A stretch of DNA of 64,000 nucleotides from an uncultured Spirochaetota bacterium (GCA_963734545.1 CAVTHO010000003.1:128001-192000); one strand, 5' to 3'. Positions 15,460-36,931 are shown, counted from the first letter of the stretch. The notes: a model not told the origin generated them from the letters alone. Numbers and translations: made by a program.

Positions 15460-15471
15460 CGGAGACGTGAA

Positions 15472-15792
15472 ATGACCGAGCTGGACAAGGACAACTTCGA
15501 CCAGACCGTGCTCGCGCACAAGGGCGTGTACCTGGTCGATTTCTGGAGCGAGACGTGCGAGACATGCCTGGACATGATGCCGCAGATCGAGACACTGGCG
15601 CGCGACCTCGAGGGTCGGGTCGGCTTCGGCAAGGTGAACATCCAGGGAAACAGGCGGCTGGCCATCCGTGAGAAGGTGCTCGGCCTTCCCAATATATCGA
15701 TCTACAAGGACGGGCAGAAGATCACCTCCTTCTCCCAGACATTCACGGCAGACCAGGTGAAGACGGCGGTGGAGGCGCTGATCGGTGGCTGA
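15472..15792 (+). CDS. trxA: Thioredoxin (glycine-reductase-associated type)
   Basis: LVDFWSETCETC CxxC; NRRLAIREKVLGLP resembles grd-cluster thioredoxins. Confidence 0.88.
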   Translation: MTELDKDNFDQTVLAHKGVYLVDFWSETCETCLDMMPQIETLARDLEGRVGFGKVNIQGNRRLAIREKVLGLPNISIYKDGQKITSFSQTFTADQVKTAVEALIGG

Positions 15793-19315: not shown

Positions 19316-19325
19316 GGGAGGGGCA

Positions 19326-19787: not shown

Positions 19788-22059
19788 GCAGCGAAAAACT
19801 GCATGTGGTCGGCGCGCGCGTGCGAAAGGTCGACGGCCGTGAGCTCGTGACGGGCCGGGCGAGGTTTGCCGGGGACATGAAGCTGCCCGGGCATGCTGCA
19901 CGGGTGTGCCGTCCGGTCGAATGTCCCGGCCGGCACGATCACCCGCGTCGACACGCGCGCAGCAATGCAGCAGCCCGATGTCCTCGCCGTGCTGACGGGC
20001 GGGGACATACCGGGGCCGAACATGATCGGGATCCTTCCGCCCTTCGACCAGCCCGTCCTGGCAACCGAGGTAATCCGCTACGCCGGAGAGTCTGTTGCGC
20101 TCGTCGTTGCCCGGACCCACGGCGCGGCCAGGAAAGCAGCGCGCCTGGTGAAGCTCGAGATCGAGCCGCTGGAGCCGCTCCTCACGATAGACGCGGCGCT
20201 GAAGGAAGGCGCCCGCAGGATACATGAGAAGGGCAATGTGACCTGCCGCGAGAATCTCGTGAAGGGGGACGTGGAGAAAGGTTTTCGGGAGGCTGACCTC
20301 GTGGTGGAGGGCACATTCGAGACCTCCCACCAGGAGCACGGATACATCGAGCCCGAGGCGGCCCTTGCCGTGCCGGTGCCGGGCGGGCGGGTCACCGTGT
20401 ACGCATCCTGCCAGTCCCCGTTCCACCTGCGCGGTCACATCGCGGCCAATCTCGCCATCCCCGCGGCGCGAGTCAGGGTCGTGCAGGCGTACACCGGCGG
20501 CTCCTTCGGCGGCAAGGATGACGTGGCCACGGAGATCGGGATCCTGGCCGCGGTGGCCGCGCGCAGGCTCGACAGGCCCGTCATGATCGCGCACGAGCGG
20601 GAGGAGTCGATCATCGGATCCAACCTGCGGCACGCCTCGCGCATCCACATCGCCACGGCGGCGAGGAAGGACGGGACCATCGTCGCCCGCCGGATAGAGG
20701 TGCTCCTTGACGGCGGCGCATACGCCTCTGAAAGCCCTTTTGTGACGACGAAAACCCTGGTGCACGCGGCGGGGCCGTACCTGATCCCGAACGTGCTCGT
20801 GCGAGTCCACCGCGGTCTACACGAACAAGACCTACTGCGGCGCGTGCCGGGGCTTCGGCGTGCCCCAGGTCACGTTCGCCTCAGAATCGAACATGGACGA
20901 GCTTGCGCTGAAGCTCGGCATCGATCCCCTTGAGCTGCGCCTGAAGAACGCCTTGAAACCGGGAGATGCAACGGCCACGGGGCAGACCTACGACCGGTCC
21001 GTGGGCCTCGTGGACACGATGCGCGCAATCGAGGCCCGCAGGCGCGAGCTCGTGCTCCCCCGCGCGCGGTGACGACCAGTGGCTCTATGGCCGCGGCGTT
21101 GCCTGCCTGCTCCAGGGCATCTCCAACGGCGCCGAAGGCGTGGACGTGGTGGGCGCGAGCGTGCAGGTCTCCCAGGACGGGAGCGCGCTCGTGAGCGTGG
21201 GGCTTGCCGACATGGGGCAGGGGGCGCGCACCGTGTGCACCCAGATCGTGTCCGAGATCCTCGGCATCTCCCTCTCGAAGATCACGGCCGGGCAGGTGGA
21301 CACGGACCTTGTGCACGACTCGGGGCCCACGGTCGCCTCGCGCAACACCACGGTGGGCGGCATGGCGGTACAGATGGCGGCTGCCGAGGTGAAGAAGTCC
21401 CTCGTCGTCCATGGCCGCCCGGATGTTCAAGGTCGAGGAATCGCTGGTCCTTTTGCAGCGACGATTTCGCGGTTCTTTCGGTCGACCGGAATGCCCGCAT
21501 TCCACTGAAAGACGTGGCCACTGCCGCCTACTGGACGGGGTATCCCCTCATGCACCTCGCTTTCTCCAAGGCGCCGGATGCGGTGTTCGACCACGAGACC
21601 CACCAGGGCAGCGTCTATATCGCCTACAATTTCGGCACTCACCTCATCGATCTGCGGATCGACCGGCACACGGGAAAGGTGGAAGTGCTGCGACACCTGG
21701 CCTGTCACGACGTGGGGAAGGTGATCAACCCGCTGGGTCTGGAAGGCCAGATCGAGGGAGGCTCCCTGTTCGGGTTCGGGCTGGCGCACATGGAAGAGGT
21801 GCTGTTCCGCGACGGCCGTGTGCTGAATGCCAATTTCGCGGACTACGCGCTGCCCTCGATCAAGGACCGGCTTCCGACCGAGGCGATGACGGTGGAAGAC
21901 TTCAATCCGACCGGCCCCTTCGGCGCCAAGGGCGTGGGGGAGCCGCCCGTGGCAGGGGCGGCAGCGGCTTTCGCCAATGCGGTGGCGGATGCCACGGGCA
22001 TCCGTTTCAGGAGACTGCCCATCACGCGGCAGGAGATACTCCTGGGGCTCAGGAGGTAG
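19784..22059 (+). CDS. Xanthine dehydrogenase/aldehyde oxidoreductase family molybdopterin subunit (about 4 frameshifts)
   Basis: QEHGYIEP, GGSFGGK, RGFGVPQ, MGQG, VASR, GQIEGG, GAKGVGEPP across ORFs 19893, 20860, 20966, 21079. Confidence 0.9.
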
Positions 22060-22063
22060 GAAA

Positions 22064-23443
22064 ATGGCGATGCTCATCAAGAACGGGCTCGTGGTGACCT
22101 TCGCTCCGGACGCGCTGCAGGGCGCCGTCATAGAGAACGGGGCCGTGGCGGTGGAAGGCGGCACGATCGTGGCTGTCGGGGAGACCCGGGATCTCGTGTG
22201 CCGGTATCCGCGCGCGGCGCCCGTGCTGGATGCATCCGGCAGAATCGTCATGCCGGGATTCATCATGACGCACACCCACATGCCGTACGTGCTCGGGCAC
22301 AACATGCCGGTGGACTTCAGCAAGCTGCGGAGCTTCTGGGACATGCTGCAGAAGATGGGGTGGGAGTGGCTGGAGGACATCACGACGCCGGAAGGCATCC
22401 ACGCGGCGACCCTGTACGCGGCAATGAAGATGCTCAAGACCGGGACGACGACGGTGTGCGAGCTCGTCGAAGGCCCGCATGCCATCCCCGGCGCGCTTTC
22501 CGCCAGCGCGCGCGCCATCGAGCAGGTGGGCATCCGGGCACAGCTCGGTTTCGAGGTCACCGAGCGGATCCCGGGCGTTTCGATACTGGAGAAGCTGGAC
22601 AAGGGGCAGGCGGACAAGGCGTTCGAGGAAAACCTCGGTCTCCTCGCGCGCTATCCCGCGGGAGGGAAGAATCGGATACAGGGAAGGCTCGGCGTGCACA
22701 CGGCGTTCACCAATTCCTTCGAGACGCTGAAGAAGGCCCGGCGCATCGCCGACGACGCCCGGTGCGGAATCCAGATCCACGTGGCCGAAATCCCCCGCGC
22801 ATTCCTGGTGGAGAAGTACGGCAAGTCGGCGCCCATGGTGCTGGAAGAACAGGGCGTCCTGGGGCCCGACGTGGTGGCGGCGCACTGCATCGATCTCTCG
22901 GACGAGGACCTCGAGATACTCAGGCGGAACCGGGTGAACGTGTCCCACACGCCCATGACGAACTCGCTGGGCGGCAACGGGGTGGCACGAATTCCTGAAA
23001 TGCTGAAAGCCGGAATGAACGTGAGCATCGGTCATGACTGCTTCTTCACCCTGGACGCATCGGAATACATCCGCTATGCCTACCTGCTGCACAAGGCCCA
23101 CAACGCGAATCCCGGGCTCATTCCGCCGTTCCAGGCCCTGGACATGGCCATGGGCAACGCGGCGCGCGCATTGGGGCTGGGGGACAGGATCGGAAGCCTT
23201 GCCCCGGGGAAATGCGCGGACATCCTCATCGTGCAGCCGGACAGCCCGTCGCCCGTGGTCCCTTCGTCGGTCATGTCGTGGTTCACCATGACGTTCCAGG
23301 GCAGGGACGTGGAAACGGTGATCGTGGACGGGCAGATCGTGGTGAAGGAACGGAGAATGACCACGGTGAACGAGGACGACGTGCGGGCCGGGTGCGGGGA
23401 GCAGGCGCGCCTCCTCTGGCGCAGAAACGGGATACAGGTGTGA
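22064..23443 (+). CDS. Amidohydrolase (SsnA/cytosine-guanine-pterin deaminase-like, COG0402)
   Basis: MPGFIMTHTH, HVAE, AAHC, GHD metal ligands, GSLAPGKCAD. Confidence 0.88.
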   Translation: MAMLIKNGLVVTFAPDALQGAVIENGAVAVEGGTIVAVGETRDLVCRYPRAAPVLDASGRIVMPGFIMTHTHMPYVLGHNMPVDFSKLRSFWDMLQKMGWEWLEDITTPEGIHAATLYAAMKMLKTGTTTVCELVEGPHAIPGALSASARAIEQVGIRAQLGFEVTERIPGVSILEKLDKGQADKAFEENLGLLARYPAGGKNRIQGRLGVHTAFTNSFETLKKARRIADDARCGIQIHVAEIPRAFLVEKYGKSAPMVLEEQGVLGPDVVAAHCIDLSDEDLEILRRNRVNVSHTPMTNSLGGNGVARIPEMLKAGMNVSIGHDCFFTLDASEYIRYAYLLHKAHNANPGLIPPFQALDMAMGNAARALGLGDRIGSLAPGKCADILIVQPDSPSPVVPSSVMSWFTMTFQGRDVETVIVDGQIVVKERRMTTVNEDDVRAGCGEQARLLWRRNGIQV

Positions 23444-23454
23444 AGGAAGCTCGC

Positions 23455-24649
23455 GTGGCGGTGGATTTGAAGACCGAGTTCTGCGGGCTCTCGTTCAGGA
23501 ACCCGCTCATTGTTCCTGCCGGCGTGCACGGCAGGGACGGGCCGACGATCGCCGCGGTGAGCAGAAGCGGTGTTGCCGGCATCTGCACGAAGACCATCGT
23601 GTCGCGGCCTGCTCCGGATGTGCTGCCCTGCTTCACCGAGGTGAAATCAGGCATGCTCAATGCCGTGTTCGGCTCGGACAGGACCGCCTCGTACTGGTTT
23701 ACCGAGGGGATCAAGCGGGCCAGGGAAGGGGAAGCGCTCGTCATTGCCAATCTGGCGGGCTTTTCCCCCGACGAGGCCGCGGAGCTCGCGGGCAAGGCAG
23801 CGGCGGCAGGCGCGGACATGATCGAGATCCCCACCCATTGCCCGCACATGGGCGAGATCCTCATGGCGATGTATCCGGGCCTGCGAGATGCCGGAGCCGA
23901 AGCTCACCGACCTGGAGCCCATGAAGCTCTCCGTGAAGCTCGTGAAGAAGGCCGTGAAAATCCCCGTGGTCATCAAGCTTTCCGGTACCTTCTCGCACAT
24001 CGTGAAGGAGTGGGCCGTCGGGGTGAAAGAGGCGGGCGCGGACGGGATCGCGTGCTCGGACGCGCTCGGTCCCGGCCTGAGCATCGACATCCGCACGGGG
24101 CAGCCCTCCCTGGGAGGTCCGCGCGGCGTGGGCGGCCTGACCGGGCCTGCCATCATGCCCATCACGCTGCGCATGGTCCTGGAGATCGCCGCGAGCGTCG
24201 ACCTGCCGATCATCGGCGTGGGCGGCGTGCAGACCGCCGCCGACATGGTGCAGTACATCATGGCCGGCGCCACGCTGGTCGGGGTATGCACGGCCGGACA
24301 CATGAACGGTCCGGGCCGCTACACCCGCATCCTGCGGGACCTCGCACAGCTCCTGGCCGAGCTCGGCGTCCGTTCCCCGGCGGAGCTGCGCGGGCTCACC
24401 CTGCGGAGGATCCGGGAACGCGGGGAAAAGAGTCAGGCCGCCGTGACGACACCTGTGCCGCCCGTGGTGGACGAGGAGAAGTGCACGGCGTGCGGCAGGT
24501 GCCAGGAGGTATGCGCGTATGACGCCATGCGCGTGAACGGCAAGGCGCACGTCGAGCCGCGGACCTGCATCGGGTGCGGGCTCTGCGTAAGCGCGTGCCC
24601 GGTGGACGCGCTCTCACAGGACTACTACATTTCCGAGGGTGGCGCGTGA
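23455..24649 (+). CDS. Dihydroorotate/dihydropyrimidine dehydrogenase-like (PreA-type) FMN enzyme with C-terminal 2x[4Fe-4S] domain (frameshift near 23885)
   Basis: CTKTI, THCPH, PVVIKL, GGLTG, IIGVGG; CTACGRC..C and CIGCGLC..CP. Confidence 0.85.
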
Positions 24650-24713
24650 GCGTTGATTCCGGTTTTCATCACGGCTTTGTTAAGGCCGTCTTCAGTTTGC
24701 GGAGGAGGTCGAT

Positions 24714-25730
24714 ATGAAGAAGAGACTCGTGTGTGTCGTGGTCGCGGTCTTCAGCATCATGCTGGCGGCGCCGCTGTTCGCGGCGCCGGTCAGCCTCGCC
24801 ATCTTCGTCCCGGGCGTGGCGGCGGGCAGCCCCCTGTACGAGCAGATGGTAAGCGGCGCGCAGAAGGCGGCCGCGGAGTATCCCGACATGACCCTGAAGG
24901 TCGTGGAGGCCGGGTTCAACCAGGCGGAATGGCCCGAAAAGATGACGTCCCTCGCGGCAACGGGTGAGTACACCTACATCCTCACCTCGAACCCGTCGAT
25001 GCCCTTCATCTGCGCGGACGTGGCAAAGAGCTTCCCGCAGCAGAAGTTCATCGTGATGGACGGCTACCTTCCTCCCGGCAATCCGCAGTTCTACACCCTG
25101 ATGTACAACCAGGTGGAGCAGGGCTACTTCGCCGGCTACCTCGCGGGGCTCGTGACCAAGAGCAAAATGAAGGGCGCGACGCCGGACCTGAAGGTGGGCG
25201 CGATCGTGGCGCAGGAATACCCGGCGCTCACCAAGGAGATGATTCCCGGCTACACGCAGGGCTTCAAGGCGGTGGACCCGAAGATCACCCTCGACTACCG
25301 GGTGGTCGGCAACTGGTATGACGCCAACAAGGGCGCCGACCTGGCGAACAGCATGATGGATGCCGGCGTGGACGTGATCCTCGCGATCGCCGGCGGGGCG
25401 GGGCAGGGCATCATCAAGGCGGCGCAGGAGCGCGGGCGCTACGTCGTGTACTTCGACAGCAACGCGTACGCGATCGCCCCGGGGACGATCGTCGGGTGCG
25501 CGACGCTGGACCAGAACCGGGCCGTCTACGAGACCCTGAAGAAGGCCCTGCAGGGGACGCTCGCTTTCGGCACGGCCGACGTGGTGAACGCCAAGGCGGG
25601 GTACGTGGATTTCGCGGACAACGACCCGCTGTACACGAAGAATGTCCCGGCGGACGTGCGCGCAAAGATGACGGATCTCATGAAGAAGTTCCGCTGCGGC
25701 GCCATGAGCCTTCCGGTTCCCCCGATGTAG
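24714..25730 (+). CDS. BMP-family ABC substrate-binding protein resembling riboflavin-binding RfuA
   Basis: Signal peptide; AIFVPG..SPLY, EAGFNQAEW, SNP, YNQVEQ, RVVGNWYDANK, DPLY segments match my recollection of Treponema RfuA (TP0298); needs alignment. Confidence 0.8.
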   Translation: MKKRLVCVVVAVFSIMLAAPLFAAPVSLAIFVPGVAAGSPLYEQMVSGAQKAAAEYPDMTLKVVEAGFNQAEWPEKMTSLAATGEYTYILTSNPSMPFICADVAKSFPQQKFIVMDGYLPPGNPQFYTLMYNQVEQGYFAGYLAGLVTKSKMKGATPDLKVGAIVAQEYPALTKEMIPGYTQGFKAVDPKITLDYRVVGNWYDANKGADLANSMMDAGVDVILAIAGGAGQGIIKAAQERGRYVVYFDSNAYAIAPGTIVGCATLDQNRAVYETLKKALQGTLAFGTADVVNAKAGYVDFADNDPLYTKNVPADVRAKMTDLMKKFRCGAMSLPVPPM

Positions 25731-25794
25731 AGAGGACGATTCCGATCGTGCGGGGGAGCAATCCCCCGCACGCTCCGGAACGCGCGAGGGACTG

Positions 25795-27349
25795 ATGCCG
25801 TACCTGGAGATGCGGGGCATATCGAAGCTCTACCCGAATGACCTTCTGGCCAACGATGCCATCGATTTCTCCGTGGAGAAGAACGAGATCCATGCCATCG
25901 TCGGCGAGAACGGAGCGGGCAAGACGACTCTCATGAAGATCCTCTACGGCCTGGAGCAGCCGGATGCGGGCTCCCTCACGCTCGCAGGGAACCCGGTCAC
26001 GATCCGCAGCCCCCTGGACGCCAACCGGCTCGGGATCGGCATGGTCCACCAGCATTTCAAGCTCATCCCGGAGTTCACGGTCGCGGAGAACGTCGTTCTG
26101 GGCATCGAGCCGCGAAAGAACCTCCTGTTCGTGGACAGAAGCGCCGCCGCGGAGCGCATCCGCGAAGTGATTGCGAGCCACGGGTTCAGCATCGATCCGC
26201 GCGCGCGCGTGCTGAACCTGACCGTCGGCCAGATGCAGCAGGTGGAGATCGTCAAGATGCTCTACCGCAGGGCGGACCTCCTCATCCTGGACGAGCCCAC
26301 CTCGGTGCTCACCGAGCAGGAGATCCACAAGCTCTTCGAGACCCTGCGCAGCCTCCAGAGGAACGGGAAGACCTGCATCATCATCACGCACAAGCTGCAG
26401 GAGGTGATGGAGATCTCGGACCGGGTCACCGTGATGCGCAAGGGGAAGGTCGTCGCCGTCCGGGAGACCGCGGAAGTGGACAAGGCGGAGCTGTCACGCC
26501 TCATGGTCGGCAAGAGCGTGCTCTTCCAGTTCGAGCGGGCCAGGAAGGCGTGCGGGGACGCCGTGCTCGAGCTGGTGGACGTGACCCTGAAGCAGCGCGG
26601 CAGGGACCGGGCGCTCCTGGACGGGATCAACCTCACGGTCCGCTCGTGCGAGATAGTCGGGGTGGCGGGGGTCAGCGGAAACGGGCTCGGCGAGCTGGAG
26701 GACGCGGTGGCGGGCCTGCGCCGGATCACCAGCGGAAGGATCCTTCACAATGGGGAGGACATCTGCCGGTCTTTCTCCTGCCACGCTGCGCGAGCGGGGG
26801 TTCGCGTACGTCCCCGCCGACAGGCTGCGGCGCGGCTCGAGCCTCCAGTCCACGGTCACGGAAAACATGATCGTGACCAGCCACCACCGTTTCCTTCGGG
26901 CGGGGTTCCTCAAGGGGGGAAAGATCCAGCAATTCGCGGAACGCCTGACAAAAAGCTTTTCGATCGACGGGGCCCCCCGGGCGCCCATCGGTACTCTTTC
27001 GGGCGGCAACATCCAGAAGGTGATCCTCGCGCGCGAGCTCGCCACTGCCTCCAATCTCGTCATCGTGTCCGAGCCCACGTGGGGGCTGGACGTGGCGAGC
27101 AGCCAGTTCGTCTACGAGAAGATCCTGGAGATGCGCAAGGGGGGTGCCGGGATTCTCTTCATCTCCTCCAACCTCGACGAGATACTCGGCATCGCGGACA
27201 GCATCGCGGTGATGTACCGGGGCCGGGTCGTCGCGTTCCTGCCGAATGTCCCGGACCTCACCAAGGAGCGGATCGGGGAATACATGCTGGGTCTGCGGGA
27301 CGATTTCGCCCCCGAGGGCGGCCCGCAGAAGAAGGATGCGCAGCCGTGA
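25795..27349 (+). CDS. ABC transporter tandem ATPase (CUT2/nucleoside type, RfuB-like; frameshift near 26765)
   Basis: GENGAGKTT, ILDEPT, second domain LSGGNIQK. Confidence 0.92.
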
Positions 27350-28392
27350 AGGAAAAGAGGAATCTCGGCGCGCTGTTCACCGGGTTCACCGGCCTGGCGC
27401 TCACGCTCCTGCTCTCGTTCGGGCTGGTCATCGGGCTCGTCTTCCTGCTCAGCAGGACGCCGGGCCGCACCCTCTACTACTTCTTCGTCGGCGCGTTCAC
27501 CAACAAGTACTACCTGGGAAACATGCTGAACGTCGCCGTTCCGCTCGTCTTCACCGGCCTCGGGATCTCTGTTGCGTTCAAGTCGTCCGTGTTCAACCTC
27601 GGGGGTGAGGGGCAGATCTACGCCGGGGGCCTTGCCGCCACGGCCGTCTGCCTGGCCCTGCCCGCGGCCAATGGCTACCTCGGCGGGTTCACCGCGCTGG
27701 CGGGGGCAGTGGTGCTTTCCGGGGGCATCGCCGGATTGTCGGGGTTTTTCCGGATGAAGTGGAACACGGATGAAATGATCTCCTCGTTCCTCCTCTCCTC
27801 CGCGGTCGTCCTCGTCGTGAACTATTTCATCACGGGCCCCCTCGACGACCCGAAGAACAATCTCCTTGCCACGCTGGCCATCGGACCGCAGTACGGGCTC
27901 CTGAGGATATTCCCTCCGTCGAAGCTCAATGTCAGCGCCTTCTTCGCCCTTGCGGCGGCCCTGGCAGTGTTTTTCTTCATGTACAAGAGCCACGCGGGAT
28001 ACGAGATGCGGATGTGCGGGCTCAACCGCGAGTTTTCCCGCTACGGCGGCATCAACGTGTCCAAGTACCTCGTGCTTCCCATGATCATGAGCGGCGCCCT
28101 GCACGGGCTGGGGGGAGGCCTCATGGTGCTCGGCACCTACGGGGCGACGATCGAGGGCTACTCCTTCGGCATGGGCTGGAACGGGATCGCCGTGGCGCTC
28201 ATTGCGAAGAACAACCCGCTCGGCGTGATCCCCGCCGCATTCCTGTTCGCCTATCTCGACGCCGGGGCAAAGGCCGCGATGCTCAACTCGGACGTCACGT
28301 TCGAGATCGCGGCGATCGCCCAGTCGTTCATATTCTATTTCGTGACCGCGCAGGCCCTCTACGGCTTGACGCGAAGGCGGAGAAGGGCATGA
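27346..28392 (+). CDS. ABC transporter permease (RfuC-like)
   Basis: FNLGGEGQ, GWNGIAVALIA, multiple TM helices; GTGA overlap with ATPase stop. Confidence 0.9.
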   Translation: MKEKRNLGALFTGFTGLALTLLLSFGLVIGLVFLLSRTPGRTLYYFFVGAFTNKYYLGNMLNVAVPLVFTGLGISVAFKSSVFNLGGEGQIYAGGLAATAVCLALPAANGYLGGFTALAGAVVLSGGIAGLSGFFRMKWNTDEMISSFLLSSAVVLVVNYFITGPLDDPKNNLLATLAIGPQYGLLRIFPPSKLNVSAFFALAAALAVFFFMYKSHAGYEMRMCGLNREFSRYGGINVSKYLVLPMIMSGALHGLGGGLMVLGTYGATIEGYSFGMGWNGIAVALIAKNNPLGVIPAAFLFAYLDAGAKAAMLNSDVTFEIAAIAQSFIFYFVTAQALYGLTRRRRRA

Positions 28393-29300
28393 GCGGCAAC
28401 TCTCCGTTCTCCATTCCCCTCATCCACAACGCGGTGGACATCATGACGCCGTTCCTGCTCGCCGGGATCGGCGGGCTCTTCACGGAGCTGGCCGGGATGC
28501 TGAACATCGCGCTCGAAGGGCTCATCCTGACCGGAGCCTTCTTCAGCATCGTGTTCGCGGCCGCCACCGGCAACCTGCTCCTGGGGATCCTCCTCGGGAT
28601 CCTGTGCGCAATGGCGCTTGCCTGGATGTTCGGGGCCGTCACCCTGTACATGCGGGCCAACGTCTTCATCACCGGTCTCGCCACGAATCTCTTCGCGTCC
28701 GGGTTCACCATCGTGCTCGCTTTCCAGCTCTTCAAGACAAAAGGGGTCATCCAGTTCCCGGGGATTCCGAAGCTTCCCGCCCTCGTTGTTCCCCCGTTTC
28801 TCCAGAAAATACCGGTGGTGGGAGATGTCCTCTTCGGGCACAACGTGATCGTCTACCTCACCTGGGCCATCGTGCTGCTGTCCGCCCTGGTCATCTACCG
28901 TACGCCGTTCGGGCTTCGACTCCGCGGCACCGGTCTGAATTCCGCCACGGTCGTGTCTCTCGGTCTCAATCCCAAACGCTACCAGATGGCCGGCATCCTG
29001 ATCTCCGGCCTGACCTGCGGCCTGGCCGGCGCCATGCTCACCATCGAGCTGGCAGCATTCGTGCCCGAGATATCCTCGGGCCGGGGATGGATCGCCCTGG
29101 TGGCCATCTATCTGGGCAACAAGACGCCGTGGGGGATCTTCATCGCTTCGTTCGTGTTCGGCCTGGCGGAGAGTTTTTCGAACTACGCCCAGGGCGCCAT
29201 CAAGGTGCCGGTGGACTTCATCCTGGCCCTGCCGTACGTCATCACGGTGGTCGCAATGATCATCTATTCCATGTTCCGCCATTTCCGCTCGCGGGGATGA
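28389..29300 (+). CDS. ABC transporter permease (RfuD-like)
   Basis: GMLNIALEG, GRGWIAL, ALPYVIT. Confidence 0.9.
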   Translation: MSGNSPFSIPLIHNAVDIMTPFLLAGIGGLFTELAGMLNIALEGLILTGAFFSIVFAAATGNLLLGILLGILCAMALAWMFGAVTLYMRANVFITGLATNLFASGFTIVLAFQLFKTKGVIQFPGIPKLPALVVPPFLQKIPVVGDVLFGHNVIVYLTWAIVLLSALVIYRTPFGLRLRGTGLNSATVVSLGLNPKRYQMAGILISGLTCGLAGAMLTIELAAFVPEISSGRGWIALVAIYLGNKTPWGIFIASFVFGLAESFSNYAQGAIKVPVDFILALPYVITVVAMIIYSMFRHFRSRG

Positions 29301-29333
29301 GGCGGCCGACAGCCGAGTGAGAGGAGCTACGAT

Positions 29334-30360
29334 ATGAAAGCAGCCGTCCTGACCGCGCCGGAGAAGATCGAGATACAGGACATCGAGAAGCCGGTCCTCA
29401 AGGGGAACGAGATCCTCGTGAAGCTGAAGAACTGCGGCATCTGCACCCTCGAGCAGAGGCTCTACACGGGGGCGGTCAAGATCCGGTTCCCCATCGTTCC
29501 CGGACACGAGGCATCCGGGGAGGTCGTCCAGGTCGGCAGCGAGGTGAACTCCGACATCGCCGTCGGGACCCGCGTGGCGCTCGACCTCGTCCTGCGCTGC
29601 GGCGAATGCTACTACTGCCGCACCGGGCAGTCGAACATGTGCCTGAACCGGTTCAAGAAGGACGCGAAGGTGCTCGGCGGCTTCGGGGAGTACGTCGCCG
29701 TGGCCGCGACCCAGGTATTCCCCATCCCTGCCTCGCTCTCATTCGAGGAGGCCGCCTTTGCCGAGCCGCTTTCCTGCTGCGTCCGCTCGCTCAAGAAAAT
29801 CGGGCTGCACCTGGCGGAAGACCTCCTCATCATCGGGGCGGGACCCATGGGGCAGATGCACCTGCAGGTGGCCCTCTGCATGGGGGCCCGGGTATTCGTC
29901 TCGGATCCTGATACATCCCGCCTGGCCATGGCGAAGAGGCTGGGCGCATTCGCCGCAATCGACCCCGGCAGCATGGATCTCATCGGCATCATCAAGGAGC
30001 ACACGGAGGGCCGCGGCGTGGACGCGTGCGTCATCACGAGCGCCGCGCACGTTGCCCTCAACACGGCGTTCGAGTCGATCTGCAAGAACGGGCGGGTGAA
30101 CATCTACACCTCCTACACGGACAAGCCGTCGATTCCCGTCGACGCGAATACCCTTCACCGGACCGAACAGACCATCACCGGGCAGCGAGGGAAGGACGGA
30201 GCAGGATTTCCTCCAGGCGGTGCGCCTCCTCTCCTTCGGAAAGGTGGACGTGAAGCCGCTCATCAGCGGCACGGTGGGGTACCCGCAGCTGGTGAGCGGC
30301 ATCCTGGCAGCGATGACGCCGAAAACCTACCGGGTGCTCCTGGAACACGAAGGCGGCTGA
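29334..30360 (+). CDS. Zn-dependent polyol/alcohol dehydrogenase (frameshift near 30181)
   Basis: CGIC, GHE, CGECYYC..C, GAGPMG; true C-terminus GSEGRTEQDF..ends TGA 30360. Confidence 0.88.
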
Positions 30361-31805
30361 TGATACTTGCAGTCGACGTGGGGACCTCGGTCCTCAAGGG
30401 GGGGCTGTTCGACAGGCACGGTGAACCCCGGTCCCGCGCCGAATCGCCCCTCGAGCTCCTGGCGCATCCCGATCCGCTGTGGCACGAATCCGACGCGAGG
30501 GAGTGGGTCACCGCGCTCCGTCTGGTCACGCGTCGTCTCCGCCTGTCCCATGCCGGTCCGCTCGATGCCGTCGTGGTGAGCGGCAATGGCCCGACCCTGC
30601 TCCCCGTCGGCGCGGACGGGATGCCGTTGACGCCCGCGATGACGTGGATGGACAGGCGGGGCGTGGCAGAGGCCGGAATCATCTCCGAGAAGAGCGGCCT
30701 GCCGACGGACCCCACCTTCTATCTTCCCAAGGCGTTCTGGCTGTACCGGAATCGACCGGACGTGTACGAGAAGACCCGCTGGTTCTTCTCGTGTCCCGAG
30801 TTCATCGCGTACACGCTCACCGGGGAGGCGGTCACCTTCCTCCCGACTCCGCAGTACACGCGCCTGATCTGGGAGGAGAAGCTGATCCGTGATCTCGGCA
30901 TGGCGCCGGAGAAGTTTCCGCCCTTTATCCGGTCCGGCAAGGTGCTGGGCAGGGTGAGCGCGGCGGGAGAGAAAGCCACGGGAATACCCGCCGGCGTTCC
31001 GGTCGTGGCGGGAGGGCCCGACTTTCTCGTCTCCCTTCTGGGCACGGCCACTGTCCTGCCGGGCCGGGCGTGCATCAGGTCCGGCACGTCGGAGGGCATC
31101 AACCTCTGCTCCCGCATCCCGACCGCGGATCGGCGGCTCCTGTGCTTCAGTCACATTGCGGAGGGTTTCTACAACGTTTCCGGCATGATCTCGACGTCGG
31201 GCAAGGCACTCGAGTGGCTCAAGGACACGATCGGCAGGTCCGCGGACAGCTACGAGAGGGTCTTCGAAGACATCGAGCAGGTGCCGCCCGGGGCCGACAG
31301 CCTCCTGTTTCTCCCCTACCTGGCCGGAGAGAGGGCGCCGCTCTGGGACCCCTGCGCGCGCGGCGCCTTCATCGGGCTCACTCTGAATCATCACGGCCGC
31401 GAGATGACGCGCGCCGTGGTCGAATCAGTGGCGTACGCGATCCGCGACGTGGTCGAGGTCATGGAGGATTGCGGGCAGTCCGTGCAGGACCTGCGCATCA
31501 CGGGCAACCCTTCGCGGAGCCGTCTCTGGAACCAGATCAAGGCGGACGTGACGGGACGGCGCATCCTCGTCCCCGTGCTGCAGGATTCGGATCTCGCCGG
31601 CGACGTGTGCCTCGCGCTGCATGCCCTGGGCGAATACGAATCCGCCGCCGCCGCCTCCGAGGCCATCGTGAAGATGGGAATGGTCTTCGAGCCGAACGCG
31701 GAGAACAAGGGCCTGTACGATGATATGTTCCGCCTCTACCGCGAATCCTACACCGGTCTCCGCGCAGTGTTTCAAAAACTTTCGAGCCTCAGGAGCACAC
31801 CATGA
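30360..31805 (+). CDS. FGGY-family carbohydrate kinase (xylulo/ribulokinase-like)
   Basis: LAVDVGTS, WMDRR, GGPD, SGTS, LPYLAGERAP. Confidence 0.9.
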   Translation: MILAVDVGTSVLKGGLFDRHGEPRSRAESPLELLAHPDPLWHESDAREWVTALRLVTRRLRLSHAGPLDAVVVSGNGPTLLPVGADGMPLTPAMTWMDRRGVAEAGIISEKSGLPTDPTFYLPKAFWLYRNRPDVYEKTRWFFSCPEFIAYTLTGEAVTFLPTPQYTRLIWEEKLIRDLGMAPEKFPPFIRSGKVLGRVSAAGEKATGIPAGVPVVAGGPDFLVSLLGTATVLPGRACIRSGTSEGINLCSRIPTADRRLLCFSHIAEGFYNVSGMISTSGKALEWLKDTIGRSADSYERVFEDIEQVPPGADSLLFLPYLAGERAPLWDPCARGAFIGLTLNHHGREMTRAVVESVAYAIRDVVEVMEDCGQSVQDLRITGNPSRSRLWNQIKADVTGRRILVPVLQDSDLAGDVCLALHALGEYESAAAASEAIVKMGMVFEPNAENKGLYDDMFRLYRESYTGLRAVFQKLSSLRSTP

Positions 31806-32596
31806 CAGTCGGCAAGAGCATCAGAGAGTCGTCCCTCTTCAGGCGCGCCACGGGCAGGACCGTCATCGTGGCCCTCGATCACGGCGGCATCGCGGGCCCC
31901 ATCGCGGGAATCGAGCGGCCCGCCGAGGTCGTCCGGGCCTGCCGCGAGGGAGGCGCGGACGCGATCCTCGCCACGCGCGGCGTGGTGACGGCCTCCCAGG
32001 GTGAATGGGACCGGAGCATGTCCGTCATCCTCCGCCTCACCGGAGGATTCACCGTGCTGGGAGGCAAGTTCGAGGAGGAGCTCATCTCGAGCCCCGAGGC
32101 GGCGCTCTCTCTCGGCGCGGCGGGCGTGGCGGTCACGGTGAAGTTCGGCCACGAGCGGGAAGGGGAGTTCGCGCGGCAGGCTTCCCTCGTGGCGGACAGC
32201 TGCGAGCGATGGGGACTGCCCCTGATGATCGAGGCCATGGCAAAGAGCAAGGACATGAAGGCGAGCGACCCGCGGGGCGTCCTGCTCGCGTCCCGCGCCG
32301 CGCAGGAGATCGGGGCGGACATCGTGAAGACCTGGTACACGGGAGACCCCGAGAGCTTCCGCCGCGTCGTGGAAGGCTGTCCCGTGCCCATCGTGATCCT
32401 CGGGGGGGAAAAGTCGGAAACGCTCGAGGCGGTCTTCAGTGACGTGTACGGCGCCCTGCAGGCCGGCGCAAAGGGGATCGCGATCGGGCGCAACATCTGG
32501 CAGCACGGCAAGACCCGGGAAATGGTGGAGGCCATGGTCGGTCTCGTGCACGAGAGCTGGACGGTGAAGCAGGCGCTGCACCACCTGGGCGGCTGA
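31802..32596 (+). CDS. Class I DhnA/LsrF-family aldolase
   Basis: VALDHG, GADIVKTWYTG (Schiff-base Lys), GRNIWQ. Confidence 0.9.
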   Translation: MTVGKSIRESSLFRRATGRTVIVALDHGGIAGPIAGIERPAEVVRACREGGADAILATRGVVTASQGEWDRSMSVILRLTGGFTVLGGKFEEELISSPEAALSLGAAGVAVTVKFGHEREGEFARQASLVADSCERWGLPLMIEAMAKSKDMKASDPRGVLLASRAAQEIGADIVKTWYTGDPESFRRVVEGCPVPIVILGGEKSETLEAVFSDVYGALQAGAKGIAIGRNIWQHGKTREMVEAMVGLVHESWTVKQALHHLGG

Positions 32597-32597
32597 G

Positions 32598-33740
32598 GTG
32601 CCGGCGCTCGCCTTTGCGACCAACTTCCTGTGGGTCATGGTGATCGGCCTCCTGGGGCCGTCCCTTCCCGCCATGGTCGCGGACCTGGGCATCACGTATG
32701 CGCAGGCCGGGTTCTTCTTCACCCTGCTCTCATTCGGGTCCCTGATCGGCACGAGCCTCGGCGCCATCGGCAGCGACTACGTTCCACGGAAGCTCCTGTT
32801 CGGCCTGTGCATCTTCGTTCTTTCCGTGGGCCTGTTCGTCCTGGGACTGATGCCGAGCTACGTGCTGGTCGCGCTCGTCATCTTCCTCCTGAGCCTGACG
32901 GGGAGCCCGATCGGCGCCATCGGTCAGAGCATCATGCTGGGAATGTTTCCCGGCAAGCGGGAGAAATACCTCTCCTACATGGCGTTTTTCGGCGCGCTCG
33001 GCAACCTCCTTGCTCCGGTGGTCGTGTCTCTGAACTTCACTGCCTCCCTCAGCTGGAGGTGGCCGTTCATCGAGACTGCAGTCCTGGCGTTCATTGTGTT
33101 CATCGCGCTCCTCGCCACACCCATCCCTTCTGCTGCACCGGTGCATCGGCCCGAGAAGCTCGCCACGATCATGAAGAATCGCGGCGTCCTGTCCTCCGCC
33201 GTGCTCATATTCTTTTCCGTGGGCGCGGACCTCGGTTTCTCGTACTGGCTGGCCGAGTACTTCAAGAGCGAGCTGCACGCGAGCCTTCGAATGTCGAGCT
33301 CGGTGGTGGGCGTCTACCTGGTGGGCATCCTCGTGGGCAGGATCCTGGTACCCGTGTTTCTCAAGAGGATCAGCGCGCGCGCCAACCTCATCATGGGGCT
33401 CGGTGTCGCGCTCGTCTCCATTGTTCCCTTCATCATCGTCCCGTCGGTTCCGCTCAAGATCGCGCTCTGCGCGGTGTACGGCTTCGGGATAGGGCCGGTT
33501 TTTCCCCTGCTGGTGGCACGGGGATCGCGCGAGTTTCCTTCCCAATCAGGAGCGGTCACCGGTGTCCTCTTTGGGTGCCTGTCCCTGGGCGGCATGATCT
33601 TTCCTCTGCTGGTGGGGGCGATTGCAGGTTCCGCCGGGATTGCACGATCCTATTTCTTCTGCGCGGTGATCGCCTGCGGCCTTCTCGTGGCGGTGATCGC
33701 GGGCCCTACAGAACGACCCGCGAGTCGCCGTCCCGCTTGA
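32598..33740 (+). CDS. MFS transporter
   Basis: About 12 hydrophobic segments, GPSLP, WRWPF. Confidence 0.85.
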   Translation: MPALAFATNFLWVMVIGLLGPSLPAMVADLGITYAQAGFFFTLLSFGSLIGTSLGAIGSDYVPRKLLFGLCIFVLSVGLFVLGLMPSYVLVALVIFLLSLTGSPIGAIGQSIMLGMFPGKREKYLSYMAFFGALGNLLAPVVVSLNFTASLSWRWPFIETAVLAFIVFIALLATPIPSAAPVHRPEKLATIMKNRGVLSSAVLIFFSVGADLGFSYWLAEYFKSELHASLRMSSSVVGVYLVGILVGRILVPVFLKRISARANLIMGLGVALVSIVPFIIVPSVPLKIALCAVYGFGIGPVFPLLVARGSREFPSQSGAVTGVLFGCLSLGGMIFPLLVGAIAGSAGIARSYFFCAVIACGLLVAVIAGPTERPASRRPA

Positions 33741-35481
33741 GAAGACCGTCCTTTTCCATGCGATTCAGCAGGGGGATGACGTATTTCCTGGAGAGGCCCG
33801 TCCTCTCCTTGGCCTCGGGAATCGAGAACCGCTCGGCCTTTTTCCTGCCGGCCAGCACCCGCGCCGCGAGCTCGTCGAACACGGTCCGCGCGTAGCAGAT
33901 GCCCCCTTCCAGGGGCACGACAAGGGAGAGCCGGATCAGGGTTTTCAGCTCCTTCTGTGCGCCCTCGATTCCCGTATGGGTCGATTCGAACCCTGCTTTT
34001 CCCGCGCGCTCGATTTCGGAGAGGAGCCGCCGCCCCCGCGCGGAAAGCCCGCTCTTGTCCGGCTCGGCCCGCGCGAAGTACAGGTCGCGGGCAGGCGTCA
34101 AGACCCCCTTTGCCACGAGTGAGGCAAGCACGCTCTTCAGGGCGTCCCCGTCGATGCGCAGCTTGCTCTCCAGCTCGCGGGATGACACGCCGGCAGGCAG
34201 GGCGGCGACGGCGAGTATGTCCGCGGTGAGCTTCTCCAGCCACGGCGGGTGGAAGAGCCACTCGTCGATCACGACAGGGCTCCCGGCGTCGTCGAGGGAC
34301 AGGTCCTTCGGCTTCCGCGCGAGGCCGTGGAAGCGGAGCTCGAGCAGAAAGCGGTCCGGGTCACGCGGCCTTTCCGGCATCGCGGCGAGCAGCCCGGCGA
34401 GCCGTCCGCGCTCTTCTTTCTTCACCTCGCCGAACCAGAGTATGCGGCCGCTGCCCAGGATCTCGCTGCCCCCGTGGCGGATGACGAGAAATGGCTGACC
34501 CCAGAGCGCCGGCAGCGGCTCCCGAAGCTGGATCCGCGCGACCCGGCGGTCTCCCATGTAATGAAGCTGCGCCATCACGTGTCCGGTGCCCAGCGCCACT
34601 TCCACCTCGGAATGGTTTCTCATCTCCGACAGCCCCTGGAGCCCCTCGACGGGCCGCACGCGTGCCATGAGCTCCGTTTCGGAAGAGAACGGCGCGCGCG
34701 GGGAGGTGATGCAGTTGCCGCGCCTGATCTCGCCGCGGGTTTTCTGGAGGTTGAGCGCGAGCCGCGACGTCGGTCTTGCTTCGCTCACCGAGGCGTTGTA
34801 GCTCTGCATGCCGCGGACCCTCACGGTTTCCCGCTGCGGCAGGAGCACCAGCTCGTCCCTTTCCGTGCACGGCGCGCCCTTGAGGCTGCCGGTCACCACG
34901 AGCCCCGATCCCTTGATCGTGAACACCCGATCCACGTAGAGAAAGGGAAAGCCGGGCGCGTCGCCGCGCATCGGGAGAGCGGAGACAGTCCTTGTGATGA
35001 GGTCTTTCAGCGCACCCACGTTCCTGCCCGTGAGCGCGGAGACCGCGATGCAGGGAGGCTCCGCGCCGAAGATCTTCGCGCAGCGCGCCCGCGCATCTCT
35101 TCCAATCTCTTCCACGCGGTTTTCCGCGGCCGCGTCCGTCTTGGTCACGACGACGATGACGGAGCCCACGTCGAGGGACGCGAGGACCACGGCGTGGTCC
35201 TGGGTCTGCTGCATCCACCCGTCGTCCGCCGCCACGAGAAGCAGGGCGCAGTCCAGGCTCCAGGCGCCCGCCACCATGTTGCGGATGAACCTTTCGTGCC
35301 CCGGCACGTCGATGACGCCGATGGGCTCGCCGTTCTCCCCCGCAAACCATGCGAACCCGAGGTCGATCGTCATGCCGCGGGCTTTCTCTTCGGGCAGCCG
35401 GTCCGGGTTGATTCCCGTCAGCGCCTCGATGAGCGTGGTCTTTCCGTGATCGACGTGTCCCGCGGTCCCGATGACGTGCAA
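33706..35481 (-). CDS. selB: Selenocysteine-specific elongation factor
   Basis: TTG start; HVIGTAGHVDHGKT, RGMTIDLGF, DVPGHERF, C-terminal SRKYVIPLL winged helix. Confidence 0.93.
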   Translation of the reverse strand: MHVIGTAGHVDHGKTTLIEALTGINPDRLPEEKARGMTIDLGFAWFAGENGEPIGVIDVPGHERFIRNMVAGAWSLDCALLLVAADDGWMQQTQDHAVVLASLDVGSVIVVVTKTDAAAENRVEEIGRDARARCAKIFGAEPPCIAVSALTGRNVGALKDLITRTVSALPMRGDAPGFPFLYVDRVFTIKGSGLVVTGSLKGAPCTERDELVLLPQRETVRVRGMQSYNASVSEARPTSRLALNLQKTRGEIRRGNCITSPRAPFSSETELMARVRPVEGLQGLSEMRNHSEVEVALGTGHVMAQLHYMGDRRVARIQLREPLPALWGQPFLVIRHGGSEILGSGRILWFGEVKKEERGRLAGLLAAMPERPRDPDRFLLELRFHGLARKPKDLSLDDAGSPVVIDEWLFHPPWLEKLTADILAVAALPAGVSSRELESKLRIDGDALKSVLASLVAKGVLTPARDLYFARAEPDKSGLSARGRRLLSEIERAGKAGFESTHTGIEGAQKELKTLIRLSLVVPLEGGICYARTVFDELAARVLAGRKKAERFSIPEAKERTGLSRKYVIPLLNRMEKDGLLKRDGDSRVVL

Positions 35482-35486
35482 GGCGC

Positions 35487-36834
35487 TCACACCCCGAGGG
35501 CGGTCCGAATGGCGGAGGCGATATCGTGTTCGCTTTCGCCGTGCATCGTGGCGAGCGAGAGTCGTCACCCGGCCGTCCTCGATTATGCCGATGATCGGTG
35601 TCTCCCGGCTGCGGAGGGACCGAAGGAGGTCTTCCGGCTTCTGTTCCGAGGCGAGCTCGATGGAGAGCGATGGAAAAAACTCGTCCGGGGCGCTTCCCCC
35701 GCCCGTGGAGATTTTCGAGCTGACGAGAGACGCACTGCCGCGCGGGATATCGCGGAGGATTCTTTCCCCCATTGCGCGCAGCTCCTCGGGCGGCAGGGCG
35801 AGAGTGCGTTCCGCCTGCCCGATTTCCGTGCCATTGAGCCGCGCCACGAGATGGTGCTCGAGGAGGGAGTAGATGGTCTTGCCCGGTCGAACGGCGCGCA
35901 GCAGGGGATGCGCCGCGAGGCGGCGCACGAGATCCCTTTTTCCCGCGACGATTCCCGCCTGGGGGCCTCCCAGCACCTTGTCTCCCGAGAAGCACACCAG
36001 GTGGGCCCCCTTTTCCAGCAGGGACCGCACGCGTGTCTCCCCGGCGATATTCTCCGAGACGGTGCCCGACCCCTGGTCCACGGCGAGCACGACGTCCGGT
36101 GGGAGACTCTTCGCAAGCTCCGCAATATCCGGTTTTTCAGTGAATCCCCTGACCCGGAAGTTGGAGGTGTGCACCAGAAGCACCATCCCGGTATTCTCCG
36201 TGACCGCGTCCCGGTAGTCCGCCAGCGTCGTGATGTTCGTCGTGCCCACCTCGACCAGTCGCGCTCCCGAGAGGGCGAGTATCTCGGGGATCCGGAACCC
36301 CCCGCCGATCTGCACCTGCTCTCCCCGGGATACAATGACATCCCTTCCCCGTGCCAGCGCGGCGAGCGTGAGGAGCACCGCCGCGGCGTTGTTGTTCACC
36401 ACCAGCGCGTCCTCACAACCCGTCAGGAGGCCCAGCAGCTCGGGACAGATCCCGTTCCTGCTGCCCCGCCTGCCCGTGTCCAGGTCGAGCTCCACGTTGG
36501 AATACCCGGTGTTCGCGTCCGCCGCATTGTCCCAGACGGACCGGGAAAGCGGTGAGCGGCCCATGTTGGTGTGCAGGATGATGCCCGTCGCGTTGATCAC
36601 CTTCCTGATCCGCTTCGAGGCATGCCGCTGGCATTCCTGCTCGATCCGGCTCACGAGGGCGCTCTCTTCGAATACCGTTCCCTGCTCGCGTATCTCATTG
36701 CGCGCCTCTGCGAGGACATCCGAAACGATCCGCGCCACCAGCGGCCTGCTGAGAGCCGGGCACTGCGCCGCGATTATGGGATGCTCGAGCAGCTTCTCTA
36801 CCTGGGGGATGCTCCTGTAGCTTTTTTCGGGCAT
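35487..36834 (-). CDS. selA: L-seryl-tRNA(Sec) selenium transferase (frameshift near 35565)
   Basis: VINATGIILHTNMGR, VNNNAAA, EVGTTN, FSGDKVLGGPQAG. Confidence 0.93.
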
Positions 36835-36842
36835 TGCTGTCG

Positions 36843-36931
36843 CGGAAGAGGCAGGAATCGAACCTGCCGCTGCAATATCTGCAGCCAACGGTTTTGAAGA
36901 CCGTGGAGACCACCAGATCCCATCAGCTTCC
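36843..36931 (-). tRNA. selC: tRNA-Sec (anticodon UCA)
   Basis: GGAAGCTG...ACGGT-CTTCAAA-ACCGT, long variable arm GCTGCA..TGCAGC, GCAGG-TTCGATT-CCTGC; located between selD and selA. Confidence 0.93.

Follow-up and report, generated by a model that had tools for sequence, protein, structure and literature searches.

An RfuABCD-type transporter linked to a dehydrogenase-kinase-aldolase trio in an uncultured Spirochaetota bacterium: a candidate operon for cleavage of the riboflavin side chain

Introduction

Why would a bacterium encode a riboflavin-type importer in one run with three enzymes of the kind that serve in polyol and ketose breakdown? The question is raised by a stretch of 64,000 nucleotides (nt), hereafter the window, from an uncultured Spirochaetota bacterium (GCA_963734545.1, CAVTHO010000003.1:128001-192000; here G000:C3:128001-192000), whose genome comprises 5.14 Mb on 10 contigs with an estimated completeness of 89%. 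Between positions 24714 and 33740, genes for an RfuABCD-like ATP-binding cassette (ABC) transporter are followed by those for a Zn-dependent dehydrogenase, an FGGY-family carbohydrate kinase and a class I aldolase (together, the trio) and by one for a protein of the major facilitator superfamily (MFS). An earlier interpretation made from the sequence alone (the original prediction) had seen in this arrangement a system for catabolic uptake, in which the trio splits a ribityl side chain.

To our knowledge, anaerobic conversion of riboflavin to hydroxyethylflavin or formylmethylflavin has been seen since about 1970, with no enzyme assigned to it. According to the accessible text of the article concerned, the first candidate gene set came in 2026 from gut Lachnospiraceae and rests on transcriptomics (PMC13492142). 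Here we present evidence for a reading of the window operon to which we give about an even chance of being right: RfuABCD would import riboflavin, and the trio would split its ribityl side chain to yield dihydroxyacetone phosphate (DHAP) and 10-formylmethylflavin.

Results

The ligand is indicated by the substrate-binding protein (SBP) encoded by the first gene. Its best solved relative, in a HMMER comparison with the Protein Data Bank (PDB), is TpN38(b)/TP0298, the RfuA protein of Treponema pallidum (4IIL_A; E 9.9e-83 over query residues 25-335), as against E 3.1e-16 for the purine-nucleoside binder PnrA/TmpC (2FQW_A). The motif blocks by which the original prediction had recognized RfuA (FVPG..SP.Y, EAG.NQ..W, SNP, YNQ.EQ, RVVGNWYD and DPLY) are all visible in the alignment with 4IIL_A. 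The accessible text of Deka et al. 2013 (PMC3573665) describes a crystal structure of T. pallidum RfuA that holds riboflavin, in a site where the ribityl chain is buried and the ring stacks on aromatic residues, its far end being exposed to solvent; S24 is given as the sole direct polar contact to the ring, and Y27, N82, Y157 and W189 as likely predictors of riboflavin binding. With the chain index taken as the published number plus 22, S24, Y27, N82, Y157 and W189 of TP0298 correspond to S39, Y42, N93, Y169 and W201 of the window SBP, all conserved, and P83 corresponds to P94. The comparison of TP0298 with PnrA/TmpC that had been proposed as a check, ligand contacts included, thus favors TP0298, every discriminating residue being present.

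These features extend to the relatives. The five ligand positions are kept in 33 of the 34 other transporter-linked SBP rows of our alignment (the exception, from the riboswitch-linked locus L026, has N at the position of S24), and the position of P83 differs in 7 of 35 RfuA-type rows, two from relatives of the same genus and five of Coprothermobacterota type. Three orthologues from the same order (G026, G027 and G033) are 52-54% identical to the window protein, with motif blocks almost as in the window, and a maximum-likelihood tree places the three SBPs linked to flavin mononucleotide (FMN) riboswitches among the trio-linked ones instead of setting them apart. Two SBP paralogues of the host genome have not kept the riboflavin-discriminating residues. 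Because residues of the TP0298 type are kept and orthologues stand under FMN riboswitches, the case is strong for regarding the window SBP as an RfuA orthologue, whose ligand we take to be riboflavin.

One could envision that the same chemistry acts on another ribityl heterocycle, such as 6,7-dimethyl-8-ribityllumazine, the deazaflavin FO/F420 head group or analogues of the roseoflavin type. At the DNA level, the stretch is best represented in metagenome runs labelled wetland, and such compounds would occur in methanogenic wetland sediments. Moreover, the SBPs of loci labelled Coprothermobacterota differ in several motif blocks, and the solvent-exposed far end of the ring described for TP0298 in the accessible text could tolerate other rings (PMC3573665). 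We consider this alternative unlikely, however, since the window SBP hardly differs in its motif blocks from orthologues controlled by FMN riboswitches, and the T. pallidum protein was crystallized, according to the same text, with riboflavin itself (PMC3573665).

The second line of evidence is the association of this transporter with the trio. All eight genes lie on the plus strand (Table 1), each belonging by Pfam match to the family that the original prediction had named, and since starts and stops overlap or sit 1-64 nt apart, they are most simply viewed as a single eight-gene operon. A promoter scan gave 0 sigma-70-like sites and no more terminator-like sites than expected from shuffled sequence, and there were no RNA datasets among the listed holders of this stretch.

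When an alignment of the aldolase was used to scan 185,579 species genomes, 37 loci were found. The public relatives found in this way are nearly all metagenome-assembled genomes (MAGs) labelled Spirochaetota, including Rectinemataceae, Sphaerochaetaceae and 'Spirochaetales'. Both dehydrogenase and kinase accompany the aldolase in 31 of the 37 (the remainder being truncated contigs, one Firmicutes locus and one fragmentary locus), Rfu-type transporter genes are adjacent in 27, and an MFS gene is present in 21. The genes recur in several orders. In the first, the transporter is followed by a MerR-family regulator gene (not in all), dehydrogenase, FGGY kinase, aldolase and MFS genes; in the second (L051, L053), the transporter is divergent from the series MerR-dehydrogenase-FGGY-aldolase-MFS. 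In the third, of Sphaerochaetaceae type (L059-L063), MerR is divergent from dehydrogenase-FGGY-aldolase-SBP-ATPase-permease-permease and there is no MFS gene. The fourth, found on three MAG contigs (two labelled Coprothermobacterota and one an unclassified 'uncultured bacterium'), runs from one or more SBP genes through ATPase, permeases, dehydrogenase, FGGY kinase and aldolase to genes for an ornithine carbamoyltransferase (OTC)-like protein (in two of the three), a xanthine dehydrogenase (XDH)-family enzyme and SsnA. An even sample of 400 genomes from the phylum added two aldolase orthologues, both followed directly by SBP-ATPase-permease-permease genes; with only two more found, the module is rare outside this order. 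In a sample of 41 genomes from the order itself, 11 have an aldolase orthologue, and an RfuA orthologue is present in 10 of these as compared to 7 of the 30 others, counts that are descriptive because related genomes are not independent. Taken together, the evidence is strong for a conserved coupling of the trio to an Rfu-type transporter.

Two observations on the relatives may be added. At L073 (G014:C8:413268-414987), in a genome of the same genus, we found fragments of the aldolase and MFS genes only, without dehydrogenase or kinase, while the Rfu locus of that genome lacks the trio; such remnants suggest that the module can be lost or decay. In four loci, three of them close relatives of each other (L032:12210-14195, L033, L034 and L042:11455-13338), the MFS gene is followed at a distance of 0.3-3.9 kb by genes for aldehyde:ferredoxin oxidoreductases, enzymes that could oxidize an aldehyde product.

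The third line of evidence concerns regulation. The original prediction had stressed that the gap upstream of the SBP gene is a mere 64 nt and that no FMN riboswitch is present, and coordinates and Rfam searches bear out both statements. At the Rfam gathering score, no FMN riboswitch was detected in the window (whose only match is the tRNA-Sec of Table 1), in the whole host genome or in 26 aldolase-bearing loci of relatives. The space between the stop codon of the upstream PreA-like gene, ending at 24649, and the ATG of the SBP gene at 24714 is too short for the aptamer, the Rfam FMN model being 138 positions long. Three other genomes of the order do have complete FMN riboswitches, scoring 98-118 bits, immediately before an RfuA-type SBP gene (Table 1), and none of the three has an aldolase orthologue. 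Hence the order contains two kinds of rfu operon, one FMN-repressible and without the trio, the other free of the riboswitch; the trio is found in many operons of the latter kind, whereas L017, L018, L023 and L024 lack both trio and riboswitch. An FGGY gene beside the riboswitch-controlled SBP gene of L026 was rejected as a case of the trio, as it belongs to an RpiB/metallo-beta-lactamase operon in a genome without the aldolase orthologue.

The missing riboswitch had been taken to indicate catabolic uptake rather than vitamin salvage. The choice between the two is doubtful. No domains of RibB (3,4-dihydroxy-2-butanone-4-phosphate synthase), RibE (riboflavin synthase) or RibH (lumazine synthase) were detected in the host genome, at its 89% completeness, and RibH is missing in 10 of the 11 trio-bearing genomes and in 17 of the 30 others of the order sample. 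The host thus looks like a riboflavin auxotroph, which would need imported riboflavin, and its importer must also serve salvage unless this task falls to a second candidate, a RibU-type S component of an energy-coupling factor (ECF) transporter encoded on contig C7.

The same contig encodes a RibF-like protein (G000:C7:595062-595997) with an FAD_syn domain alone, its C-terminus of about 95 residues having no match to the Pfam Flavokinase model. No flavokinase domain was found by Pfam in the order sample of 41 genomes or in the 15 genomes of the same class within the phylum sample, in which the domain occurs in 118 of 151 genomes; nor was an archaeal CTP-dependent riboflavin kinase found. The idea that the FGGY protein stands in for the riboflavin kinase missing from the lineage was discarded as a general answer, since the flavokinase domain is absent from all 41 genomes and the trio is present in only 11.

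Table 1. Positions of the operon and of associated elements (coordinates of the window unless a locus is named).
Feature	Position	Strand	Remarks
Gap between PreA-like gene and SBP gene	24650..24713	+	64 nt; weak terminator-like hairpin 24671-24689; ribosome site GGAGGAGG
rfuA-like substrate-binding protein, 338 aa	24714..25730	+	Pfam Bmp 8.4e-62; PDB 4IIL_A 9.9e-83; N-terminal signal peptide by inspection
rfuB-like double ABC ATPase	25795..27349	+	Pfam ABC_tran; two frames owing to 1-base insertion near 26763
rfuC-like permease	27346..28392	+	BPD_transp_2; start approximate; overlaps ATPase stop
rfuD-like permease	28389..29300	+	BPD_transp_2 (open reading frame 28014-29300); ATG overlaps rfuC stop
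Zn-dependent (medium-chain, MDR) alcohol/polyol dehydrogenase	29334..30360	+	Pfam ADH_N, ADH_zinc_N; frameshift near 30180, a 1-base assembly insertion
FGGY-family carbohydrate kinase	30360..31805	+	Pfam FGGY_N, FGGY_C; start overlaps dehydrogenase stop by one base
Class I aldolase, DeoC/LacD family (MJ0400/LsrF/archaeal fructose-bisphosphate aldolase branch)	31802..32596	+	Pfam; ATG overlaps kinase stop
MFS transporter, weakly TsgA-like	32598..33740	+	Pfam MFS_1; starts 1 nt past aldolase stop
tRNA-Sec	36844-36931	-	Rfam
selD	36983-37978	-	after selA/selB and tRNA-Sec
FMN riboswitches of same-order genomes	L026:3088-3230; L027:143-260; L028:1-140		upstream of SBP genes

As assembled, the window displays two open reading frames (ORFs) that would suggest fusion proteins, one of 865 residues joining ATPase and permease (ORF 25795-28392) and one of 823 residues joining dehydrogenase and kinase (ORF 29334-31805). 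Both were ruled out. In alignments with orthologues from relatives, the former switches from frame 1 to frame 2 at about 26766, and the latter from frame 3 to frame 1 at 30209; the relatives have the ATPase in one frame, and dehydrogenase and kinase as separate genes. The two frame-switch sites are short runs of G, at which we compared near-identical contigs from four metagenome runs (X1-X4): the extra base at 26763 is missing in every covering contig (runs X2, X3 and X4), and that at 30180 in the sole covering contig (run X1). The orthologues' change of frame and the contigs lacking the inserted base show the fusions to be false, and near-identical strains have a separate and intact gene for each of the four proteins (ATPase, permease, dehydrogenase and kinase). 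Other genes of the window are split over two or three frames, including those for the molybdenum subunit of the XDH-family enzyme (19893-22059) and the PreA-like protein (23212-24649), Gly_reductase-type genes (12947-14253) and a radical SAM/SPASM gene (52433-53610). With so many genes split alike, the assembly evidently carries indel noise, but some stops in the Grd-type genes may be selenocysteine codons instead. Conversely, selA and selB form a single ORF of 1060 codons in the window (33706-36888, minus strand) and lie in separate frames in relatives, so that the joined ORF is probably another indel artefact.

Farther upstream, positions 4792-18269 hold an ORF for hydantoinase/oxoprolinase A+B and genes for octopine dehydrogenase-like, OTC-like, GrdB, B-type Gly_reductase, DUF5940 and PlsX-like proteins; judged by these families, a selenoprotein cluster of glycine-reductase type here precedes the XDH genes. 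On the far side of the operon, GC content falls to 0.43-0.46 at 54001-58000, from about 0.65 elsewhere. An Eco57I/MmeI-type restriction-modification methylase gene (54122-57211) lies in this region, followed by an ORF of 719 codons without Pfam match (57480-59639), and the low-GC stretch is probably acquired DNA.

Discussion

We infer the catalytic steps, the products and the part played by the MFS protein as follows. The RfuABCD-type importer would take up riboflavin, and three cytoplasmic steps would remove most of its ribityl chain. MDR polyol dehydrogenases of the sorbitol type oxidize the penultimate carbinol, which in the ribityl chain is the 4'-hydroxyl, and it is there that the Zn dehydrogenase would act. 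Either before or after this oxidation, the FGGY kinase would phosphorylate the 5'-hydroxyl, giving a chain that resembles a ketose-1-phosphate, and the class I aldolase would cut it between C2' and C3' to release DHAP and 10-formylmethylflavin. By our own derivation from the D-ribityl configuration, the remaining two carbinols presumably have the L-erythro arrangement of tagatose and L-ribulose. Reduction of the aldehyde would probably follow, giving 10-hydroxyethylflavin, which the MFS protein may export; should the same dehydrogenase carry out this reduction, as is possible, the pathway would be balanced for redox. This side-chain chemistry was the idea of the original prediction, of which the riboflavin-type transporter, its coupling to the trio and the missing riboswitch all stand, the opposition of catabolism to salvage being the part in doubt; in essence, it is also the chemistry proposed for Clostridium scindens in the accessible text of PMC13492142.

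Several findings weigh against riboflavin as the substrate of the trio. All three enzymes are only remotely like characterized ones, so that their function must be read from context and chemistry: PDB matches are MJ0400 (2.7e-55), LsrF (2e-35) and archaeal class I fructose-bisphosphate aldolase (3e-34) for the aldolase; a generic alcohol dehydrogenase (7e-42) and MDR alcohol, threonine and sorbitol dehydrogenases for the dehydrogenase; and gluconate and xylulose kinases (about 1e-46), along with glycerol kinases, for the kinase. Aldolases of the subfamily occur in 10 genomes of a 401-genome sample from the phylum of a Firmicutes match. These Firmicutes-type aldolases (36-53% identical) stand beside a Zn dehydrogenase gene in 7 of the 8 loci with enough flanking sequence, with an FGGY gene in 4, and their cassettes have CUT1/CUT2 ABC systems or sorbose-type phosphotransferase systems (PTS) for transporters. 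The company of sugar transporters means that dehydrogenase, aldolase and, where present, kinase are not flavin-specific as a set, and that only the transporter points to the substrate; by its gene families, the cassette is a general polyol/ketose device. Furthermore, a MerR-family regulator gene precedes the dehydrogenase gene in at least 12 loci (for example L025:6716-7213 and L060:6922-7620, minus strand), though not in the window, and a trio with its own regulator, together with the MFS gene where there is one, can be a unit by itself. The four invariant C-terminal cysteines of this regulator (CPGxxCxxCx6C) suggest that it may be a metal- or cluster-based sensor. In G041, G042 and G044 the trio and the RfuA operon are on different contigs, and in G017/G043, which has the trio, no RfuA orthologue was found. 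Lastly, the host is apparently auxotrophic, and it seems counter-intuitive to destroy a required vitamin, although C. scindens does so.

It is conceivable, in the light of these findings, that two functions merely lie side by side, RfuABCD being the salvage importer of an auxotroph while trio and MFS protein form an ordinary polyol/ketose pathway. Here a polyol entering through the MFS protein would be converted to a ketose, a ketose-1-phosphate and finally DHAP plus a small aldehyde. The absence of RibB, RibE and RibH, the MerR and MFS genes that go with the trio in many relatives, its separation from the transporter in the genomes just named and the sugar transporters of the Firmicutes-type aldolase/dehydrogenase pairs all lend weight to this view. 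Yet chance would hardly account for adjacency to Rfu genes in 27 of 37 loci and in both orthologues of the phylum sample, across several gene orders and including MAGs that are labelled as another phylum. The Sphaerochaetaceae-type order, moreover, has the transporter straight after the aldolase and no MFS gene, the eight window genes read as translationally coupled, and the RibU-type component on C7 offers another candidate for riboflavin import. We therefore regard the side-by-side arrangement as doubtful, if still a serious contender.

The remaining points against riboflavin side-chain cleavage come from neighboring genes. At L053:189-2140 and L022:6709-8654 (both minus strand), genes for a PfkB kinase and a PsuG-family protein (pseudouridine-5'-phosphate glycosidase-like) follow rfuD in the same direction; the transporter operon of L022/L051 and of L053 runs on into this pair. 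A PreA-like gene stands directly before the SBP gene in many loci, and XDH, SsnA and OTC-like genes accompany the cluster in two orders, namely XDH-SsnA-PreA, transporter and trio in the relatives of the window, and transporter, trio, OTC-like, XDH and SsnA in the Coprothermobacterota-labelled MAGs. The genes concerned, for XDH-family subunits, the SsnA-type amidohydrolase, the PreA-like flavo-iron-sulfur protein and the OTC-like carbamoyltransferase, are found with the Rfu-trio cluster at 18481-24649 of the window, at L056:11027-17270 and at L057.

Bmp-family proteins usually carry nucleosides or bases, and one might suppose that the transporter supplies such a compound to these selenium-dependent genes of purine/pyrimidine type. 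The position of the PreA-like gene, which immediately precedes that for the SBP here and in at least 7 further loci, the same-strand succession of transporter, trio, OTC-like, XDH and SsnA genes in L056 and L057, and the PsuK and PsuG-like genes after rfuD in two genomes could be understood in this way. However, the binding residues are of the riboflavin type and not the PnrA type, orthologues are controlled by FMN riboswitches, and no enzyme of the trio can open an N-glycosidic ribofuranoside. In addition, contig C7 encodes another Bmp-type SBP, 31% identical to that of the window and without the riboflavin residues, whose gene is flanked by two IU_nuc_hydro genes and one PNP_UDP_1 gene. From these families, the PnrA-like locus on C7 is the classical nucleoside locus of the genome, which means that the window transporter is not that system. 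As the original prediction had noted, there is no nucleoside hydrolase or phosphorylase gene in the window: those of the genome are on C7, apart from one at C3:69702-70421. A nucleoside or base as the cargo thus seems very improbable.

The flanking genes may represent a conserved island of selenium-dependent purine-type catabolism and nothing more. It is tempting to join them to the Rfu-trio cluster as a complete island for anaerobic fermentation of flavin, or of a ribityl-pteridine, where RfuABCD would provide import, the trio would yield DHAP and the flanking enzymes would open the uracil-like ring. The selenium-dependent molybdenum hydroxylase, the SsnA-type amidohydrolase, the PreA-like reductase and the carbamoyltransferase would then lead to carbamoyl phosphate and hence to ATP. 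We think this extended scheme quite improbable.

The operon provides a candidate gene set independent of that from the gut, in another phylum and habitat, with the substrate assigned from a linked and structurally understood riboflavin-binding protein. If cleavage of the riboflavin side chain is indeed its function, it would add a sink for flavins in anoxic wetlands, where these compounds are shared vitamins as well as extracellular electron shuttles. It would also mean that a general polyol-dehydrogenase/kinase/aldolase cassette has been recruited to the side chain of a vitamin at least twice, with different kinases. The three enzymes are soluble and open to direct testing.

How does the operon compare with known systems? 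A literature search on T. pallidum RfuA and riboflavin found no link to catabolic enzymes; one joining riboflavin and FGGY found nothing apparently relevant, judged by titles and abstract openings; and one on anaerobic riboflavin or lumichrome with aldolase found only PMC13492142 and its versions. With RfuABCD of T. pallidum (TP0298, TP0300-0302), as presented in the accessible text of PMC3573665, the window system shares a Bmp-fold SBP, a double ABC ATPase and two BPD_transp_2 permeases. It differs in that the transporter genes continue unbroken into those for dehydrogenase, kinase, aldolase and MFS protein, and in that the SBP lacks a canonical lipobox (by inspection). The RfuA homologue of S. 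smaragdinae is reported with an FMN riboswitch in the accessible text of PMC4418817, whereas the SBP gene of the window has none.

The lsr operon (LsrACDB, LsrK, LsrF and LsrG) likewise combines a double-ATPase ABC importer and two BPD_transp_2 permeases with an FGGY kinase and an enzyme of the aldolase family. The window SBP, however, is of the Bmp/RfuA type and not the LsrB type, there is no LsrG or LsrR, and a dehydrogenase is present instead; the aldolase reaches 183 bits with the LsrF model, for which the cut-off is 297 bits, and has its nearer match in MJ0400. In the DHAP shunt for 5-deoxyribose and methylthioribose and in the sulfo-Embden-Meyerhof-Parnas pathway, a ketose-1-phosphate is cleaved to DHAP and an aldehyde bearing the unusable group, which is reduced and excreted. 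These routes start from aldoses by way of an isomerase, while the polyol chain proposed here would need a dehydrogenase, and their enzymes come from other families, the aldolase of the DHAP shunt belonging to class II. An aerobic route through the monooxygenase RcaE also attacks the riboflavin side chain; from the accessible text of the articles, it depends on O2 and releases the whole five-carbon chain to leave lumichrome (PMC13492142, PMC12746152). The window operon encodes no enzyme of that class.

The closest parallel is fin, the 'flavin induced neighbourhood' of C. scindens and Faecalicatena fissicatena (Quiles Perez et al., J Bacteriol 2026, PMC13492142). As set out in the accessible text, fin of C. 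scindens is induced by 17.5 uM riboflavin. Its finB, finC and finD genes specify, respectively, a RibF-like kinase, a class I aldolase and a Zn alcohol dehydrogenase, while finE encodes a sugar-binding regulator and finA/F permeases; an aldehyde dehydrogenase gene and two glycine-reductase-like genes also belong to it. F. fissicatena, which produces hydroxyethylflavin, has a short finA-E form (PMC13492142). Its authors propose that finBCD first liberate a triose, and they describe C. scindens as a riboflavin auxotroph that still degrades riboflavin (PMC13492142).

One of the Firmicutes-type loci discussed above, L102:14782-17426 (minus strand), recalls the long fin neighborhood: a B-type Gly_reductase gene and a GrdB homologue adjoin genes for a sorbose-type PTS, a Zn dehydrogenase, an aldolase and a SorC-type regulator, and no RibF-like gene was detected by tblastn. 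Nor was one detected by tblastn beside the subfamily aldolase in any of 9 Firmicutes-type loci, a result from which nothing follows about fin itself.

The differences between fin and the window are several. The window kinase is FGGY-type and not RibF-like, the only FAD_syn match of the genome being on C7; uptake is by RfuABCD instead of RibU; and regulators, absent from the window, are of the MerR type in its relatives, as compared to the SorC-type FinE. The operon holds neither an aldehyde dehydrogenase gene nor a pair of glycine-reductase-like genes, and the wetland-labelled holders and Spirochaetota affiliation contrast with the Lachnospiraceae that carry fin. Aldolase and dehydrogenase are likened to FinC and FinD by enzyme class only, a likeness that may reflect either orthology or separate recruitment. 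What the two systems have in common is a kinase, a Zn alcohol dehydrogenase, a class I aldolase and permeases in an anaerobe that is apparently auxotrophic for riboflavin, and the proposal that a triose is split off, with hydroxyethylflavin or formylmethylflavin left behind. On these grounds the window operon is a probable variant of the recently proposed pathway, with an FGGY kinase in place of the RibF-like enzyme.

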